64,000 nucleotides of DNA from an uncultured bacterium (GTDB lineage Bacteria; Patescibacteriota; Minisyncoccia; Phycocordibacterales; UBA9973), in the NCBI GenBank assembly GCA_903892035.1, contig CAITGV010000001.1, positions 419,310-483,309 of the forward strand, given 5' to 3'. The notes beneath the pieces are model-generated. The model made no database searches, had not been told where the DNA came from, and saw nothing but the letters and a program-made list of their open reading frames with translations. Each line of letters begins with the position of its first letter. The stretch's first letter is position 1. This document shows positions 38,439 to 46,606 of this stretch, one piece after another. Made by a program: the position numbers and the translations under genes.

Positions 38439-41333
38439 ATGATATCTCGCATTTATGTAATCCCCACAGCAAATAAGCACGTTTCAATTATTGATTCATA
38501 TACAATAGATGCGGATTTGAGTAGTGTGGAAATTGAAAAAATTGCGCAAGCTCTGAAAAATCCAGTAATTGAAAAATATTCTGTAAATAAATTTTCTTTA
38601 GATTCAAAATGTAATTTTATTATTGAAATTGGATATTTACCTGGAGTTACAGACAATGTAGCAAAGTCCGCGATGGAAATGATTGTAGATTTACTCGGCC
38701 GACCATTTAAAGATGGCGAAGCAGTTTATACTTCAAAAGTACATTTAACAAACATTAACAATGCTTCGGAACTTTACAACCCTTTAATTGAACGAGCCAG
38801 CATTTCACCCTCCCATTTACAAAGGGAGGGCAAGGGAGAGGTGAGTTTACCCCTAACTGTTCCGAAAGTTGTATTACCTAAAAAAATACCAGTAATAGAA
38901 GTTTCTTTAAATATTTCAGATGATGAATTGGTTCGTATTGGAAAAGCTGGAATTGTGGATGAGGGTGGTGCACGTGGACCTCTTGCCCTTGATTTAATGT
39001 CAATGAAAACAATTCAAGAGCATTTCAAAAAACTTGGCAGAAATCCTACAGACATCGAACTCGAATCTTTGGCGCAAACTTGGAGTGAACATTGTAAACA
39101 TACAATTTTTGCAAATCCAATAGATGAAATAAAAGATGGTTTGTATAAGACATATATAAAAGGTGCAACAAATGAAATAAGAAAAATGAAAGGCAAGAAT
39201 GATTTTTGTGTTTCAGTTTTTTCTGATAATGCTGGTGGAATAATTTTTGATGAAAAATATTTAATTACACACAAGGTTGAAACTCATAATAGTCCTTCAG
39301 CGCTTGATCCATTTGGCGGAGCCATTACAGGTATCGTCGGAGTAAATCGCGATACGATGGGTTTCGGCCTCGGTGCAAAACCAGTGGCAAATGTTTTTGG
39401 TTTTTGTTTTGGTTATCCAGACGATGTGCGCCCACTTTATCGTGATAAAAATAAAACTCAAAAAATGCTTCCACCGAAGCGTATTGTCGATGGTGTGATA
39501 AAAGGAATTAATGCGGGCGGAAATTGCTCTGGTATTCCTACTGTATCGGGTTTTATTCGCTACGATGAACGTTTTCGTGGAAAGCCTTTAGTTTTCGCTG
39601 GAACTGTCGGTCTTATTCCAAAAAAAGTTGGAGGAAGACTTTCTCATGAAAAATCTGCTCAACCGGGAGACTATATTGTAATGGCGGGTGGGCGAGTGGG
39701 TGCCGATGGAATTCATGGTGCAACATTTTCTTCTGTGGTGATGGATACTGCATCTCCTGCAACAGCTGTGCAAATTGGCGACCCAATCACTCAGAAAAAA
39801 ATGAGCGATGCAATAGTAAAAGAAGCACGCGACATGGGATTATATTCAAGCATTACTGACAACGGTGCAGGAGGAATTTCTTGTTCTGTGGCAGAGATGG
39901 CAAAAGAATGTGGTGGGCTTGTTGTAGATATTGAAAAAGTTCCACTTAAATATCCAGGGTTAACACCATGGCAAATTTGGATTTCAGAATCCCAAGAACG
40001 CATGACACTTTCTGTGCCAAAAGATAAATGGGAAAGTTTTAAAAAATTAATGGACAAACGTGGCGTAGAAGCGACAGTGATTGGCGAATTTACAAATTCT
40101 GGAAAATGCATCGTGCGGCAAAATGGAAAAATTATTATGGACTTAGCACTTTCATTTTTGCACGATGGTTTACCAAAGCGCCCATTGTTTACAAAAAAAG
40201 TTGCTCATCTTCACAAAGAACCAAAAATGCCAAATGGAATTTCTCGAACTTCTTCACTTTTGAGTTTATTGAGTGAAGGAAATATCGCAGGATTTGAATG
40301 GGTATCGGAACAATATGATCATGAAGTTCAAGCGGGCTCAGTTATAAAACCGCTCGTTGGTCGCGGAAAAATAAATTCTGAAGCTCAAGTTTTTAGACCA
40401 TTACTTTCTTCTCAAAAAGGTGTAGTGCTTTCGACTGGTGTATATCCTTCGTATTCTGACATCAGTACTTACGCAATGGCAATGTGTGCACTAGACACTG
40501 CTGTACGAAATTCTATTGCCACAGGAGGAACACTTTCACATCTCGCAATTCTTGATAATTTCTGTTGGTGTTCTTCGTATGATGAAGAACGTCTTGGTGA
40601 ACTTGTGGCATCTGTGCGAGCTTGTTACGACGGGGCTGTATTTTACGGTACTCCTTTTATTTCTGGAAAAGACAGTATGTTCAATGATTTCAAAGGTTAT
40701 GATGAAAAAGGAAATCCTGTCGCGATTTCAATTCCGCCAACGCTTCTCATTTCAGCAATTGGAGTCGTGCCAGATATAAAAAAAGTTGTAAGTCCAGATT
40801 TTAAAATTGCTGGGGATACAATATATTTAATTGGTGAGACAAATGATGAGCTTGGAGCGTCGGAATATAATAAGATGCTCGCAAAAGGTAGTGGTGCAAT
40901 AGGCAACAATGTTCCAGTTGTTAATTTAGAAAAAAATAAAAAAACATATCTCGCACTTGAAAATGCAATAAAAAAAGAATTAATTGCTTCGTCTACAGCA
41001 CTTACATCTGGTGGACTTGCTGTCGCACTTTCAAAATCTGCTGTTGCTGGCGGACTTGGTTTTTCAGTATCTCTAAAAAATATTGTGGGTAATGCAGAAA
41101 ATGTTGATGCACAGCTTTTCTCGGAAAGCCAAGGACGTATTCTAGTAACAGTTTCAAAGAAAAATATTTCAGCTTTTGAAAAGGCAATGAAAGGCGTCGC
41201 TCTTTCAAGATTGGGAACAGTATCAAAAACAAATATTTGCATCATCAGTGACAAGCAAGGCAAAAAAGCAGTAGATACAACAGTTCAAAAACTTTCAAAT
41301 TCATATCACAGTTTTAGTAAAAAAATGACATAA
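38439..41333 (+). CDS. purL: FGAM synthase subunit PurL with PurS-like N-terminal extension
   Basis: PGVTD, QTWSEHCKH, KVETHNSPS, DNGAGG, SESQERM, SGKDS. Confidence 0.95.
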   Translation: MISRIYVIPTANKHVSIIDSYTIDADLSSVEIEKIAQALKNPVIEKYSVNKFSLDSKCNFIIEIGYLPGVTDNVAKSAMEMIVDLLGRPFKDGEAVYTSKVHLTNINNASELYNPLIERASISPSHLQREGKGEVSLPLTVPKVVLPKKIPVIEVSLNISDDELVRIGKAGIVDEGGARGPLALDLMSMKTIQEHFKKLGRNPTDIELESLAQTWSEHCKHTIFANPIDEIKDGLYKTYIKGATNEIRKMKGKNDFCVSVFSDNAGGIIFDEKYLITHKVETHNSPSALDPFGGAITGIVGVNRDTMGFGLGAKPVANVFGFCFGYPDDVRPLYRDKNKTQKMLPPKRIVDGVIKGINAGGNCSGIPTVSGFIRYDERFRGKPLVFAGTVGLIPKKVGGRLSHEKSAQPGDYIVMAGGRVGADGIHGATFSSVVMDTASPATAVQIGDPITQKKMSDAIVKEARDMGLYSSITDNGAGGISCSVAEMAKECGGLVVDIEKVPLKYPGLTPWQIWISESQERMTLSVPKDKWESFKKLMDKRGVEATVIGEFTNSGKCIVRQNGKIIMDLALSFLHDGLPKRPLFTKKVAHLHKEPKMPNGISRTSSLLSLLSEGNIAGFEWVSEQYDHEVQAGSVIKPLVGRGKINSEAQVFRPLLSSQKGVVLSTGVYPSYSDISTYAMAMCALDTAVRNSIATGGTLSHLAILDNFCWCSSYDEERLGELVASVRACYDGAVFYGTPFISGKDSMFNDFKGYDEKGNPVAISIPPTLLISAIGVVPDIKKVVSPDFKIAGDTIYLIGETNDELGASEYNKMLAKGSGAIGNNVPVVNLEKNKKTYLALENAIKKELIASSTALTSGGLAVALSKSAVAGGLGFSVSLKNIVGNAENVDAQLFSESQGRILVTVSKKNISAFEKAMKGVALSRLGTVSKTNICIISDKQGKKAVDTTVQKLSNSYHSFSKKMT
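38807..38842 (+). repeat. Family A in-frame element in purL (PSHLQREGKGEV)
   Basis: ACCCTCCCATTTACAAAGGGAGGGCAAGGGAGAGGT. Confidence 0.85.
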
Positions 41334-41711: not shown

Positions 41712-42005
41712 ATGGAAAAGAATTCACTTTTTTACATGGCAAATTTATATCCTGAAATAGGAAGACTTTTTACTTTTTACGATTCGGGAAAATTAGAAGC
41801 CGCAGAAAACGCAAAAATTCGAGCACTTTCAATAGTGGATAAAATACTTTCTTTTCGAGATATTATTCCGGCCGGTAGAGAAGAATGGTGTGTGATAAAA
41901 AATTTTATACTAGGATACGATAAATTAGACTCATATGAAAGAGAAATTTTAGAAAAATATAGTTACCCTTTTTCACTGAAATTTATGAAAGCATACAGTT
42001 CTTGA
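41712..42005 (+). CDS. Small helical hypothetical protein
   Basis: 97-aa ORF coupled to neighbours; MAN...EI.R pattern. Confidence 0.7.
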   Translation: MEKNSLFYMANLYPEIGRLFTFYDSGKLEAAENAKIRALSIVDKILSFRDIIPAGREEWCVIKNFILGYDKLDSYEREILEKYSYPFSLKFMKAYSS

Positions 42006-42007
42006 TT

Positions 42008-43711
42008 ATGGAAACCAGGATCTGCCAAAATTGCAAAAATGATTTTACTATCGAGCCAGAAGATTTTTTGTTTTACGAAAAAATAAAAGTTCCTGCACCG
42101 ACATTTTGTCCGAAGTGTCGCTTGTATCGGCGTTCGGTGTGGCGCAATGAGCATTTTTTATTTAAGAAAAAAGATGACCTTACTGGAAACTTAATATTTT
42201 CTACATATTCTCCATCATCAAAAATTAAAATTTTTGAGCATTCCTATTGGTGGAGCGATGAGTGGGACCCAAAATCTTTTAGTAAGGAATATGATTTCAA
42301 TACAAACTTCTTTGAGCAATTTTATGATTTACTTTACTCAGTACCACTTTGCGATAGATCAATAAAAAGTTGTGTAGAAAGTGACTACTCAAACAATGCA
42401 ACTAATATTAAAAATGCATACCTTTGCTTTAATGCAAAAAATAGTGAGAATGTTTGTTACGGGTTTCATTTTAGCGGAAGTCATGACTGTGTGGATTTTT
42501 ATCAAACTAAAGACTCCCGTCTTTGCTATGAAACCTTTTCAGTTGTTGATTCTGAGCGTATGTTTTGGTGTAGTAACTGCTCGCAATGTTATAATTTATG
42601 GTTTTCAGATAATTGTAGAAACTGCACAGATTGTTTTGGTTGTGTAAACTTAAGAAATAAAAAATACTGTATTTTTAATAAACAATATACAAAAGAAGAA
42701 TATGAAAATGAAGTTAAAAAACTTTACGACGGATCTTTTTCTTGTTTACAGGAAATACTAAAAAAGGTAAAAATTTTTGAAAAACAATTTCCTGTACAGT
42801 ATTATCATGGGAAACACAATGTCAATGTGACTGGTGATTATATTTTTAAATCAAACAATACTTTTGATTGTTTTGAAATCCACAATGTAGATAATGCAAA
42901 ATTTTCTCAATTTATTAGACACTCTAAAGATGTTTATGATTTTAGTTGTTGGGGTATTTCATCGGAATTAATTTATGAGTCTGTAAGTTGTGGAGAAAGT
43001 TCACAAAATCTAAAATTTTGTTATGAATGTTGGCCAACATCTCATGATTTAGAATACTGTGTTGATTGTCACTCATCTTCGTATTGTTTTGGTTGCGTGA
43101 GTTTAAAAAAGGGAAAATACTGTATTTTCAATAAACAATATTCTAAAGATGAGTACTTTGAGCTAAGGTCTAGAATAATTGAACAAATGAATAAAATGCC
43201 TTATATTTCAAAAAATAAACAGATATATAAATATGGTGAATTTTTTCCGACTGAATTGTCACCATTTAATTACGAAGAATGTTCAGCTTCTGATTATTTT
43301 CCAAGTAATGAATTAATAAAAGTGCCGACAAATTATAAAATTGAAATAACACCTCAAGAATTACCAGAAATTTCTATTCAGGCAGATGATTCAATTGTTT
43401 ATAAAGTAATTGAATGCCAAGATAAACAATCCTGCAATCATCGTTGTGTTGGAGCTTTTAAAATAACAGATATTGAATTAAATTTTTATAAGCGTTTCAG
43501 TATACCGATACCTAGAATATGTCCAAACTGTAGATTTTATAATAGAATGGAAAAGTTAAATTCAGTGTTATCTCGTATTGATAATTGTATGTGTATCAAT
43601 GATTTACATGGGCATATGGGTAAATGTGGCCAAGAGTTTAAAACTAATTACCCTAAAAATAAGTCTAGAATATTATATTGTGAAGGTTGTTATCAAAAAG
43701 AAGTTATTTAA
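42008..43711 (+). CDS. Cys-rich protein, copy 1 (zinc-ribbon ends, beta-helix-like core)
   Basis: CQNC, CPKC, repeated C..CFGC..L..K.YCIFNKQY, CPNC, YCE.CY. Confidence 0.85.
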   Translation: METRICQNCKNDFTIEPEDFLFYEKIKVPAPTFCPKCRLYRRSVWRNEHFLFKKKDDLTGNLIFSTYSPSSKIKIFEHSYWWSDEWDPKSFSKEYDFNTNFFEQFYDLLYSVPLCDRSIKSCVESDYSNNATNIKNAYLCFNAKNSENVCYGFHFSGSHDCVDFYQTKDSRLCYETFSVVDSERMFWCSNCSQCYNLWFSDNCRNCTDCFGCVNLRNKKYCIFNKQYTKEEYENEVKKLYDGSFSCLQEILKKVKIFEKQFPVQYYHGKHNVNVTGDYIFKSNNTFDCFEIHNVDNAKFSQFIRHSKDVYDFSCWGISSELIYESVSCGESSQNLKFCYECWPTSHDLEYCVDCHSSSYCFGCVSLKKGKYCIFNKQYSKDEYFELRSRIIEQMNKMPYISKNKQIYKYGEFFPTELSPFNYEECSASDYFPSNELIKVPTNYKIEITPQELPEISIQADDSIVYKVIECQDKQSCNHRCVGAFKITDIELNFYKRFSIPIPRICPNCRFYNRMEKLNSVLSRIDNCMCINDLHGHMGKCGQEFKTNYPKNKSRILYCEGCYQKEVI

Positions 43712-43713
43712 TT

Positions 43714-45456
43714 ATGGAAACCAGAGTCTGCCAAAATTGCAAAAATGATTTTACTATCGAGCCTGAAGATTTTTTGTTTTACGAAAAAATAAAAGTTCCA
43801 CCTCCGACTTGGTGTGCTTACTGTAGGTTTATAAGAAAAATGACTTTCGTCAATGAGAGGTCTTTGTACAAAAGACAATGTGGAAATTGTGGAACTTCCA
43901 TTATCACAATGTATAAAGATACCAATTTATTTCCAGTTTGGTGTGTGAAATGTTATTTAGCGGATTCTTGGGACCCCGTAGCCTATGGTATAGATTTGGA
44001 TTTTTCTAAAAATTTCTTTACTCAGTTTAAAGAATTGCGAGATACCGTCCCACATCGTTCACTTGATCAAAATGAGAAGAATGGTAGTGATACAGAATAT
44101 TCCAATTTTTGTTATAGCAGTAAGAATTCCTATCTTTCTTTTAATGTCACAAGTTCAGAAAATATAAAGTATAGTAAATATGTTTTAAAAAAGAATAAAA
44201 ATTGCATCGATTCTTTTATATTTGCCGACAACGATAAATGTTACGAATTAGTTCAGGCAAGCAAGAATTATAATTGCTCTTTTCTTTTAGAAAGCAGAGA
44301 GTCTATTGATTCACATTTTCTGTATGATTGTTCAAATTGTGTTAGTTGTTGCTTATCTTCAAATATCCGAAATAAAAGCTTTGTTTTTGCCAATCAACAG
44401 CTTTCGAAAGAAGATTACATGAATGCAATAAAAGGACTTGAGCTCGGGACTTATACCGGCCAAGTTCGAGCCAAGAATATTTTTAAGGAAATAGTGGAAG
44501 GCTCAATTCATAAATATGCGCATAATAAAAATGCAGTAAACGTCACGGGGGACTTTATCGAGAATTCTAAAAATATTAAATATAGTTATGGTGTTGTGGG
44601 TGGAGAAAATATGAAAAATATTTTTTTTAGCATGAATGTGGCAAAAGATTCTCATGATTTAATATTTACCGGACGAGGAGAAGAATGTTATGAACTTGCA
44701 TACGGAGGTAGGGGAATAAATAGAGTCTTTTTTTCTTTTAGTTGCGGAAGTGGTAGTAAAAATTTGTTTTATTGTGACAATTGCAAGGCTTGCATGGATT
44801 GTTTTGGGTGTGTAGGGTTGCGGAACAAACAGTATTGTATCTTTAATAAAGAGTATACAAAAGAAGAGTATTTTAAAATCACAGACAAACTAAAAAAAGT
44901 CATGACCGATATGCCGTACGTTGATAAGATCGGCAGAGTTTATGGTTTTGGAGAGTATTTTCCTACAGAAATTTCTCCATTTGCATATAATGAAACAGTA
45001 GCATTTGAAGAACTGCCATTAAGCGAAGAGGGTGTTATTAAAAATGGATTTACATGGCAGAAGGCTGAAGCGAAGTCTCACATGCCAACAATTAGCGTAG
45101 ATGATATTTTAAATAATATTGCAGATATAGATGATAGTATTTGCAATGAAATTATATCTTGTCCTAACAATGGTAGTCCAAAAACTAGTTGTTCAGGAGC
45201 TTATAAAATTTTAAAAGATGAACTTACTTTTTATAAGCAAATGCATTTACCTATACCAAGGTATTGTCCAAATTGCAGATATCACCATCGTTTGGTTTGG
45301 AAAAATCCATTTCGTTTTTATAAAAGGCAATGCATGTGTGAAAAGGAAAACCATGGGCATGAGGGATCATGTCCTAACAAGTTTGAAACCTCATATTCCC
45401 CAGAACGTCCAGAAGTGGTATATTGTGAGAAGTGTTATCAAAAAGAGGTTATATGA
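43714..45456 (+). CDS. Cys-rich protein, copy 2 (paralog of 42008-43711)
   Basis: Same architecture; 5' 89 bp 86/89 identical to copy 1. Confidence 0.85.
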   Translation: METRVCQNCKNDFTIEPEDFLFYEKIKVPPPTWCAYCRFIRKMTFVNERSLYKRQCGNCGTSIITMYKDTNLFPVWCVKCYLADSWDPVAYGIDLDFSKNFFTQFKELRDTVPHRSLDQNEKNGSDTEYSNFCYSSKNSYLSFNVTSSENIKYSKYVLKKNKNCIDSFIFADNDKCYELVQASKNYNCSFLLESRESIDSHFLYDCSNCVSCCLSSNIRNKSFVFANQQLSKEDYMNAIKGLELGTYTGQVRAKNIFKEIVEGSIHKYAHNKNAVNVTGDFIENSKNIKYSYGVVGGENMKNIFFSMNVAKDSHDLIFTGRGEECYELAYGGRGINRVFFSFSCGSGSKNLFYCDNCKACMDCFGCVGLRNKQYCIFNKEYTKEEYFKITDKLKKVMTDMPYVDKIGRVYGFGEYFPTEISPFAYNETVAFEELPLSEEGVIKNGFTWQKAEAKSHMPTISVDDILNNIADIDDSICNEIISCPNNGSPKTSCSGAYKILKDELTFYKQMHLPIPRYCPNCRYHHRLVWKNPFRFYKRQCMCEKENHGHEGSCPNKFETSYSPERPEVVYCEKCYQKEVI

Positions 45457-45484
45457 TTAAAATAAAGGCTGTAAAAAATGAGAA

Positions 45485-45800
45485 CCCCGTAGTAGATTTT
45501 TGACTCGATTATGTTCTATGTATATTGCCTAGAAAGTGAAAAATATGATGAACTTTATTTTGGTTATACCAATGATCTTAAACGTAGATTTAAAGAACAT
45601 AATCAGAAGTTAAATTTTTCAACAAAAAGATATGCACCATGGAAAATTATTTACTACGAAGCATGTTTAAACGAAAGTGATGCAAAAAGACGTGAGAAAT
45701 ATTTAAAAACTACGCAAGGTGGCAGAATGATAAAAATTAGATTAAAAGAATATTTTTATGAAAAAAGAAAAATTTAACAAGTCAAAAATTCACTACAGGG
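45485..45800 (+). mobile_element. 316-bp element: GIY-YIG gene bounded by 21-bp imperfect terminal inverted repeats, in the purQ 5' end
   Basis: Left CCCCGTAGTAGATTTTTGACT (45485-45505); reverse complement of right (45780-45800) CCCTGTAGTGAATTTTTGACT, 18/21; AGAA on both sides. Confidence 0.75.
45511..45777 (+). CDS. Small stand-alone GIY-YIG nuclease
   Basis: FYVYCL...YFGYT.DL.RR..EHN....ST....PW...YYE......A..RE..LK. Confidence 0.92.
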   Translation: MFYVYCLESEKYDELYFGYTNDLKRRFKEHNQKLNFSTKRYAPWKIIYYEACLNESDAKRREKYLKTTQGGRMIKIRLKEYFYEKRKI

Positions 45801-46606
45801 AGAAGCCCAAAGTAATTGTCCTTTCTGGATATGGTTTAAACTGCGAGGAGGAGACAAAATTCGCTTTTGAGCACGCAGGTGGAGTGGCGGATATTGTGCA
45901 TATAAATGATTTGATTGAAAATCCAAAACAACTTTTGAAATATAATATTTTGGCTTTTCCTGGCGGATTTTCTTATGGTGACGATATGGGAAGCGGAAAA
46001 GCTTTTGCGAGTAAGATAAAAAATCACTTAAAAAAAGAATTCGAGGAATTTTTGGCAGGAGATACTTTGGCAATAGGTATTTGTAATGGTTTTCAAATAA
46101 TGACGAGTTTGGGGATTTTACCCGGGGCTTTGGCGCACAATGAAGGTGGGCGATATATAGATAGGTGGGTGGATTTAGAAGTCCCACCCTCTTCCTTAAT
46201 AAGGAGAGGGCCGGGGAGAGGTTCTTCGCCATGGACCAAAGGCATTAAGAAAATTTCTCTTTCAATTGCGCATGGAGAAGGCAGATATATTACAACAGAA
46301 AAAGAATATAAAAATTTGTTGAAGGAAAATAGAATTGCATTTAAATACGTAGAAGGAGAGATGTGTAAATACCAAAATTTGAAAGCAAATCCAAATGGTG
46401 CAATGCATGCAACAGCGGGCGTTTTGGGTTATAATGGCAGAGTCCTCGGTATGATGCCTCACCCAGAGAGGGCGATGTTTTTCACACAGAGGCCAGATTG
46501 GGAATTGCAGAAGGAAGTATTGAAAAGAAAGGGTAAAAAAATTTCAGACGAAGGAGCTGGGATTTTATTGTTTAAAAATGCGGTTAGGTATTTTACAAAA
46601 GCATAA
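45758..46606 (+). CDS. purQ: FGAM synthase glutaminase subunit PurQ
   Basis: G.NCEEET, PGGFSYGD, GICNGFQ, AHGEG, NPNG, GMMPHPER. Confidence 0.95.
   Translation: MKKEKFNKSKIHYREKPKVIVLSGYGLNCEEETKFAFEHAGGVADIVHINDLIENPKQLLKYNILAFPGGFSYGDDMGSGKAFASKIKNHLKKEFEEFLAGDTLAIGICNGFQIMTSLGILPGALAHNEGGRYIDRWVDLEVPPSSLIRRGPGRGSSPWTKGIKKISLSIAHGEGRYITTEKEYKNLLKENRIAFKYVEGEMCKYQNLKANPNGAMHATAGVLGYNGRVLGMMPHPERAMFFTQRPDWELQKEVLKRKGKKISDEGAGILLFKNAVRYFTKA
46186..46222 (+). repeat. Family A in-frame element in purQ (PSSLIRRGPGRG)
   Basis: ACCCTCTTCCTTAATAAGGAGAGGGCCGGGGAGAGGT. Confidence 0.88.

Follow-up and report, generated by a model that had tools for sequence, protein, structure and literature searches.

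The window, a stretch of 64,000 nucleotides from a genome of 807 kb, carries a purine operon in the order purL, two short genes, two cysteine-rich ORFs, a GIY-YIG gene, purQ, purF and purN. The name purQ is based on database matches; purL, purF and purN were read from their translations. The two cysteine-rich ORFs are arranged in tandem (42002-43711 and 43687-45456; 569 and 589 aa), often adjoin purQ in relatives and gave no match in Pfam. Downstream follows a unit of 316 bp (45485-45800), in which an intact single-domain GIY-YIG nuclease gene of 88 aa (45511-45777; identified by Pfam, fold model and family alignment) is enclosed by 21-bp inverted repeats. The arms, at 45485-45505 (left) and 45780-45800 (right), were delimited by inverted-repeat search and family arm alignment; they match at 18 of 21 positions and constitute the longest inverted repeat in 45000-46500. 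By flank comparison, AGAA is found on both sides (45481-45484 and 45801-45804), and the repeat would be GAGAA, 5 bp, if the terminal G of the right arm belonged to the target. The uninterrupted body of purQ, encoding the glutaminase subunit of FGAM synthase according to the ORF list and a domain match, covers 45803-46606. The right arm is on the reverse strand, all other features are on the forward strand. A preceding sequence-only reading had described the 88-aa ORF, the repeats at 18/21 and the flanking AGAA, all of which are present, the ORF matching Pfam PF01541 with an E value of 1.3e-16. The three arm mismatches, at positions 4, 10 and 11, are those conserved in the family, and the purQ copy is therefore intact. 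Its own genome has this single copy, with no gene-less hairpin and no further arm pair, and encodes two other, unrelated GIY-YIG genes. Relatives of the nuclease, among them near-identical proteins (P0123-P0125), are mostly found in records titled Nomurabacteria, Paceibacterota, Patescibacteria or Saccharibacteria.

In the nuclease family the residues Y5, Y16, G18, R26, H30 and E62 are invariant, and a median dN/dS of 0.16 (181 unsaturated pairs, 46 genes) indicates purifying selection. The predicted structure (pLDDT 95) matches UPF0213, Slx1 and HIGLE domains. Sequence and fold searches of Pfam, NCBIfam and the PDB gave GIY-YIG-type matches only and no DDE, HUH, serine or DEDD transposase. 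Modeling supports a homodimer formed via strand 47-54 and the C-terminal helices, with a score of 0.60 compared to 0.02 for the best control, agreement of the runs in 100% of contacts and pLDDT values of 81 or more; the mark applied is reached by 20 of 30 solved homodimers and by one of 23 monomers.

The family set comprises 81 loci, i.e., the best 80 relatives, which are of Patescibacteria type, and the purQ locus. Paired arms were found at 69 loci and thus bound 68 of the best 80 relatives, showing that the inverted repeat at purQ is more than a chance occurrence. Twelve loci, several of them truncated, masked or with one-base arm indels, were dropped before duplications were counted, six for being without both cores and six for falling below 14/21. 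The elements are mostly 296-321 bp long, their flanks form 59 clusters on each side and 54 merged locus groups, and several genomes have two copies on different contigs or at different sites. The expectation that GIY-YIG genes with such ends should occur at unrelated loci was thereby confirmed. Direct repeats of 3-5 bp flank 49 of the 69 elements (4 bp in 33, 3 bp in 11 and 5 bp in 5) vs. about 10% for mismatched flanks of different loci, and 20 elements are without such a duplication. At three loci (L057, L066, L075) the target in the right flank continues past the duplication with the first bases of the left arm; judged from these sequences, targets may resemble the end of the element.

Landing on start codons, absent from the sequence-only reading, is the main habit of the family. 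An ATG or GTG at the right end that opens an ORF of at least 60 aa is present in 38 of 69 elements and in 35 of 54 locus groups, for which a crude gene call in the genome of the purQ element gives an expectation of about 1.6%. These ORFs always run in the direction of the nuclease; the reversed arrangement was found in 0 of 69. A single site at the 3' end of a gene read as rny is occupied by seven copies; in all six that were checked, the final codons and the stop codon are supplied by the left arm. At sites a few codons into a gene, an ATG in the end of the element is often in frame: an ATG 43 nt before the end opens a long ORF in L001, L013, L015 and L054 (three loci besides purQ), an ATG in the arm does so in L011 and L020, and L010 is a further case by its frame. 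Read-through ORFs starting from an ATG of the element were observed at 6 of 31 non-start sites vs. 1 of 38 start sites. As the ATG at -43 is present in only 8 of 69 elements, it is a trait of a subfamily that selection has used, and no family-wide device. L054 and L031 are insertions at one and the same position in two genomes; L054 has ACG in place of the start codon at its right end and a stop in its nuclease gene, and its internal ATG leads in frame into an ORF of 839 aa.

The history of purQ can be reconstructed from the flanking duplication. Deletion of the 316 nt from 45485 to 45800 gives a 270-aa ORF from ATG 45478, as had been claimed, but it is not the precise removal it was taken for, as both AGAA copies are left. 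Removal of 320 nt, i.e., of the element and one AGAA, puts ATG 45478 out of frame with 5 codons only, while ATG 45453 comes in frame with purQ, resulting in 277 aa with ten residues before the motif KPKV. As AGAA is the target duplication, the pre-insertion allele would have been without 320 nt and not 316, with the purQ start at ATG 45453; judged from the sequence, the insertion site is codon 10 of purQ, with a 4-bp duplication. The original start and leader (45453-45503) overlap the stop of the upstream ORF as ATGA, and this 4-nt overlap is the commonest in the genome (20 cases). With the element in place, ATG 45453 opens a leader of 16 codons, which ends within the left arm at TGA 45501-45503, 7 nt upstream of the nuclease ATG; this stop, at the same 7-nt distance, recurs in 18 of 35 left-flank ATG cases. 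The closest PurQ proteins in the protein collection (81%) have a lysine-rich head of six or ten residues before KPKV and no element-derived residues, the member P0121 with ten residues matching the 320-nt reconstruction. The upstream ORF directly precedes purQ, with no nuclease gene, at 35 of 86 purQ loci. The search for empty purQ alleles in relatives was successful in this respect but gave no clean junction at the nucleotide level, and none of the purQ loci with DNA context is above 72% identity. In two loci (L133, L139) a GIY-YIG gene without the arm motif of the element is positioned just upstream of purQ, and in four others (L127, L136, L138, L160) an arm-like motif is found near the purQ start.

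At five loci where the insertion lies within or directly behind the first codons of a gene and the duplication measures 4-5 bp (L013, L021, L022, L061, L065), the ORF is likewise restored from an upstream ATG when the element is removed together with one duplication copy, whereas removal of the element alone does not restore it; at L036, with a 3-bp duplication, either removal restores the ORF. The rule that one copy leaves together with the element is further backed by L013, a sister insertion five codons into tmk, for which a same-genus genome has an empty allele that aligns ungapped across the junction and has one duplication copy. This is the one clean empty allele at the nucleotide level, at a locus other than purQ; none that is clean was found for L065 and L050 (one same-genus genome each), for L019 (two genomes) or for L201 (81 genomes, in which flanks were found with one gapped junction alignment). 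Since the reconstructed ancestral allele has ATG 45478 out of frame, since the empty tmk allele has one copy and since five of six loci are not restored by removal of the element only, the in-frame 316-nt join at purQ is, on these sequence comparisons, likely a coincidence.

A look for junctions in DNA data had been proposed as a check. In contigs of four sequencing runs no joint skipping 316 or 320 nt was found; one contig of a possible source run spans the stretch without a break, and in a second sample of the same study a contig of 151 nt is identical across the right junction. A contig from another study joins 45462 to 45830 with the intervening bases undefined and 82% likeness, and was given no weight. 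As judged from these runs, the element is fixed in the sampled population.

The replacement start claimed for purQ is supported. An ATG inside the nuclease gene (45758-45760), 43 nt before the element end, is in frame with purQ via the right arm and opens a PurQ of 282 aa; the other in-frame starts, at codons 28 and 32, would both cut the conserved N-terminus. As no other start keeps PurQ whole and no alternative allele is present in the sampled contigs, it is likely from the sequence that PurQ starts at 45758. Shine-Dalgarno reasoning was dropped for this question: in the genome (G000) such motifs precede 32 of 774 called genes (4%) vs. a background of 7%. This is no enrichment, so that ribosome-site arguments favor none of the purQ starts and translation appears to start by another route. 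For annotation this means that the PurQ N-terminus called at 45758 is element-derived.

Within an element the arms pair at 91-100% at positions 13-20 and at 96-99% at positions 17-20, while arms of different elements match at 33-60% at positions 17-20 (values without L010, the right arm of which was mis-assigned). Among the changes in 55 nearest-neighbor pairs, 142 are compensatory vs. 55 one-sided and 22 unpaired double changes. In 16 elements pairing amounts to 96.7%, a value reached by 0 of 500 shuffles, with slid controls at 32-52%. The AG/GA mismatch at positions 10-11 is kept in 66 of 68 elements in either orientation to the gene (44 and 22). Covariation of the arms and conservation of this mismatch in either orientation point to recognition of a single-strand stem, beyond that of two duplex sites. 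Each arm alone folds with -0.2 and 0.0 kcal/mol, the arms together with -32 kcal/mol, and the whole element folds as RNA and as DNA with z near -4 (RNA: z = -3.8), with the start codon of the nuclease paired in the folded RNA.

Gene-less hairpins that share these ends and the loop occur in 53 of 201 family genomes with up to 11 per genome (reversed-pattern control: 8). They are present in 13 of 17 genomes that also encode a close nuclease and in 40 of 183 that do not. Inspection of 29 of them, the first match per genome, revealed a 3-5-bp duplication in seven; two, both doubtful, are located in ORFs of at least 120 aa, the copies being mostly outside genes. The longer gene-less arm pairs measure about 50-135 nt. 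The element had been suggested as a parent of coding palindromes: its ends are indeed common to short gene-less palindromes, but "coding" fits only the two doubtful cases. In-frame palindromes are present in the window in purQ (46183-46225) and purL (about 38800-38850) and belong to an unrelated family of the type CCCTCTCC...GGAGAGGG, with 30 genome copies by a loose pattern, the insertion in purQ being common to the closest PurQ proteins. The coding palindromes of this genome are thus of the CCCTCTCC...GGAGAGGG family and not GIY-YIG arms.

The enzyme is tied to the hairpin by two further layouts. In L216, L217 and L218 nucleases nested in the element clade have no enclosing arms and a whole hairpin with the same ends just upstream, a layout that is REP/RAYT-like or Ssn-like and perhaps domesticated. 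Sister nuclease groups share the layout of the purQ element but differ from it in arm sequence, i.e., the elements L219, L221, L225, L226, L220, L295 and L288 of 274-288 bp with different arms, several of which also lie on start codons with a short duplication.

The nearest published system, which the sequence-only reading did not name, is Ssn with its NTS/SRM hairpin repeats, a group of small GIY-YIG enzymes cleaving ssDNA next to the hairpin that belongs to them; the main text of that report raises an IS-like layout NTS-ssnA-NTS as a hypothesis and demonstrates no transposition, and the words "duplication", "Patescibacteria" and "CPR" do not occur in it (Chenal et al., 2025, PMC11893778). 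Both systems, as far as this text describes Ssn, have a GIY-YIG protein that is about 90 aa long, comprises this domain only and keeps Tyr/Tyr/Glu intact, together with a hairpin repeat family that also occurs gene-free, and the catalytic spacing matches (Y6/Y17/E64 in Ssn, Y5/Y16/E62 in the purQ element). In contrast to the SRMs described there, each of which is a whole hairpin, the arms of the purQ element fold only together, with the gene in the loop. No SRM motif was found beside 53 CPR GIY-YIG genes scanned. With two NTS-flanked proteins from viral contigs as stand-ins for the Ssn clade (cd10448), these fell outside the element clade (99/97 support, only 88 columns), and the one alignable NTS-flanked protein shows 36% identity to the element clade over 66 aa. 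In one locus (L232, G234:C3) a nuclease gene is interrupted by NTS/SRM-like repeats.

Like insertion sequences and MITEs, the elements have terminal inverted repeats, a short target duplication, one gene, scattered copies and gene-less derivatives with the same ends. Unlike insertion sequences they measure about 300-320 bp in all, encode no recognized transposase class, have arms selected for mutual pairing with a fixed 2x2 mismatch, show a duplication varying from 3 to 5 bp and have a strong start-codon bias in one orientation. REP/REPIN-RAYT systems and TIRtrons likewise combine hairpin repeats with a small nuclease gene, which in TIRtrons lies between long inverted repeats, but their enzyme is an HUH tyrosine transposase, whereas the gene enclosed here is GIY-YIG; in the accessible text of the publication GIY-YIG is not mentioned (Di Nocera et al., 2013, PMC3733652). 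With GIY-YIG homing genes the family shares a selfish GIY-YIG gene, but it is without a DNA-binding domain, an intron or a single homing site. In CPR rRNA genes, GIY-YIG insertions unlike introns were described, scattered over poorly conserved sites, in an article the accessible text of which contains no mention of inverted repeats or duplications (Tsurumaki et al., 2024, PMC11270868). No published description of an element with TIRs and TSDs and a GIY-YIG gene was found, and subscription journals or the Ssn supplements could hold these proteins.

Taken together, the unit is a real and intact miniature mobile element. The sequence-only reading was right on the minimal element with inverted-repeat ends, which is borne out by the arms, the unrelated loci and the empty sites in relatives, and on the replacement start, and wrong on the excision product. 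The explanation we favor, with a probability of roughly 0.65, is that the unit belongs to miniature insertion elements widespread in Patescibacteria, with the GIY-YIG nuclease as the only gene and likely mover, and that purQ was kept functional via the internal ATG. From comparison of the loci it is almost certain that the unit is mobile; that the nuclease drives its movement is probable. In its furthest form, the 88-residue GIY-YIG dimer would be a new transposase class that recognizes its own hairpin, moves the element and its gene-less offspring and aims at gene starts, a proposal for which we consider the chances to be even. GIY-YIG enzymes hydrolyze DNA, and none is known to join strands.

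Mechanistically, the arms would pair when the element becomes single-stranded, on the lagging strand or during transcription, resulting in a stem with a fixed 2x2 internal loop. Bound to this stem, the predicted dimer of the nuclease would introduce a nick at the foot, comparable to SsnA nicking beside its hairpin, and staggered target nicks 3-5 nt apart, followed by joining and fill-in by host repair enzymes, would create the variable duplication. As compact genomes would keep only harmless insertions, copies would remain on start or stop codons or a few codons into a gene: on start codons the ATG would be duplicated, on stop codons the left arm would rebuild the end, as in rny, and copies a few codons into a gene would persist when an ATG in the end of the element is in frame. 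At purQ, translation would begin at 45453, end in the left arm and resume on the nuclease gene, with PurQ initiated at 45758. The start-codon bias may reflect targeting or host selection. Selection could also account for the orientation bias, as ribosomes passing through the element would unfold the stem ahead of the host gene.

Among the alternatives, the one that survives best, yet in our view unlikely, is that of a REP/REPIN- or MITE-like hairpin moved in trans by another transposase, e.g., a Y1/RAYT-type HUH enzyme that recognizes the GTAG of the arms, with the GIY-YIG gene as a passenger in the loop that is maintained for a different function, for example cleavage of incoming single-stranded DNA. 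HUH enzymes perform strand transfer on ssDNA hairpins, and Y1 genes, present in 104 of 201 family genomes and with five matches in the genome studied here, co-occur with gene-less hairpins (43 of 103 vs. 10 of 97 genomes). The odds ratio is 6.2 for Y1 vs. 11.6 for the nuclease, each association holding within the strata of the other and both being overstated as the genomes are related; 10 of 53 hairpin-positive genomes, which are incomplete, have no Y1 match. IS200/IS605 enzymes are not known to make variable 3-5-bp duplications. GTAG, described as a tag of RAYT-associated REPs (PMC3733652), is found in both arms; here, however, it is inside the stem on both arms and no unpaired tag is present at one end. 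Also against movement in trans, the nuclease clade remains linked to this hairpin in either of two layouts, and arm sequences change from one nuclease subgroup to the next.

Less probable still is a homing-like spread, in which the nuclease nicks the target and repair copies the element in, the choice of target being linked to where genes begin and end; it differs from the favored explanation in the joining step only. Nick-and-copy is performed by GIY-YIG homing endonucleases and Penelope nucleases, and the seven copies at one rny 3'-end site and the variable duplication length would fit. Homing needs homologous flanks and makes no duplication, whereas the elements occupy 54 unrelated locus groups with no common flanking homology. 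The CPR rRNA study, as far as its text was accessible, also placed its GIY-YIG insertions outside homing (PMC11270868).

We consider it very improbable that mRNA or DNA loses the element by removal between the paired ends, with both AGAA kept and ATG 45478 joined to purQ. The join is in frame and the arms pair in folded RNA (z = -3.8), but as a general rule such removal, suggested earlier at the RNA level, would result in a frameshift at five of six comparable loci, the empty tmk allele has one copy, and ATG 45478 was out of frame ancestrally. Rfam found one tRNA only over 10 loci, with nothing on the element and no self-splicing intron fold. A fixed host nuclease gene with a regulatory-RNA inverted repeat, to which the paired nuclease start and the fixation in the sampled population would correspond, is practically refuted by the unrelated loci, the duplications, the empty alleles (tmk, purQ-adjacent) and the gene-less copies.

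With relatives at dozens of unrelated sites in ultra-small bacteria, the element is possibly a very small kind of jumping gene, and its movement may be due to an enzyme for which no such role is known. If the nuclease mobilizes it, a bacterial transposase class with an element of about 300 bp is missing from insertion-sequence classification, and in the furthest form of the proposal the element would rank with the smallest autonomous transposons and give rise to new N-termini of genes. The Ssn/NTS insertion-sequence hypothesis would gain a testable case with duplications and empty sites, and the 88-aa hairpin-guided nuclease, for which nature offers numerous arm variants, is easily tested and may serve as a tool. 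For Patescibacteria, the favored explanation would account for their many small GIY-YIG genes and hairpin repeats and would show that mobile DNA persists in very compact genomes via rebuilt gene starts and ends.
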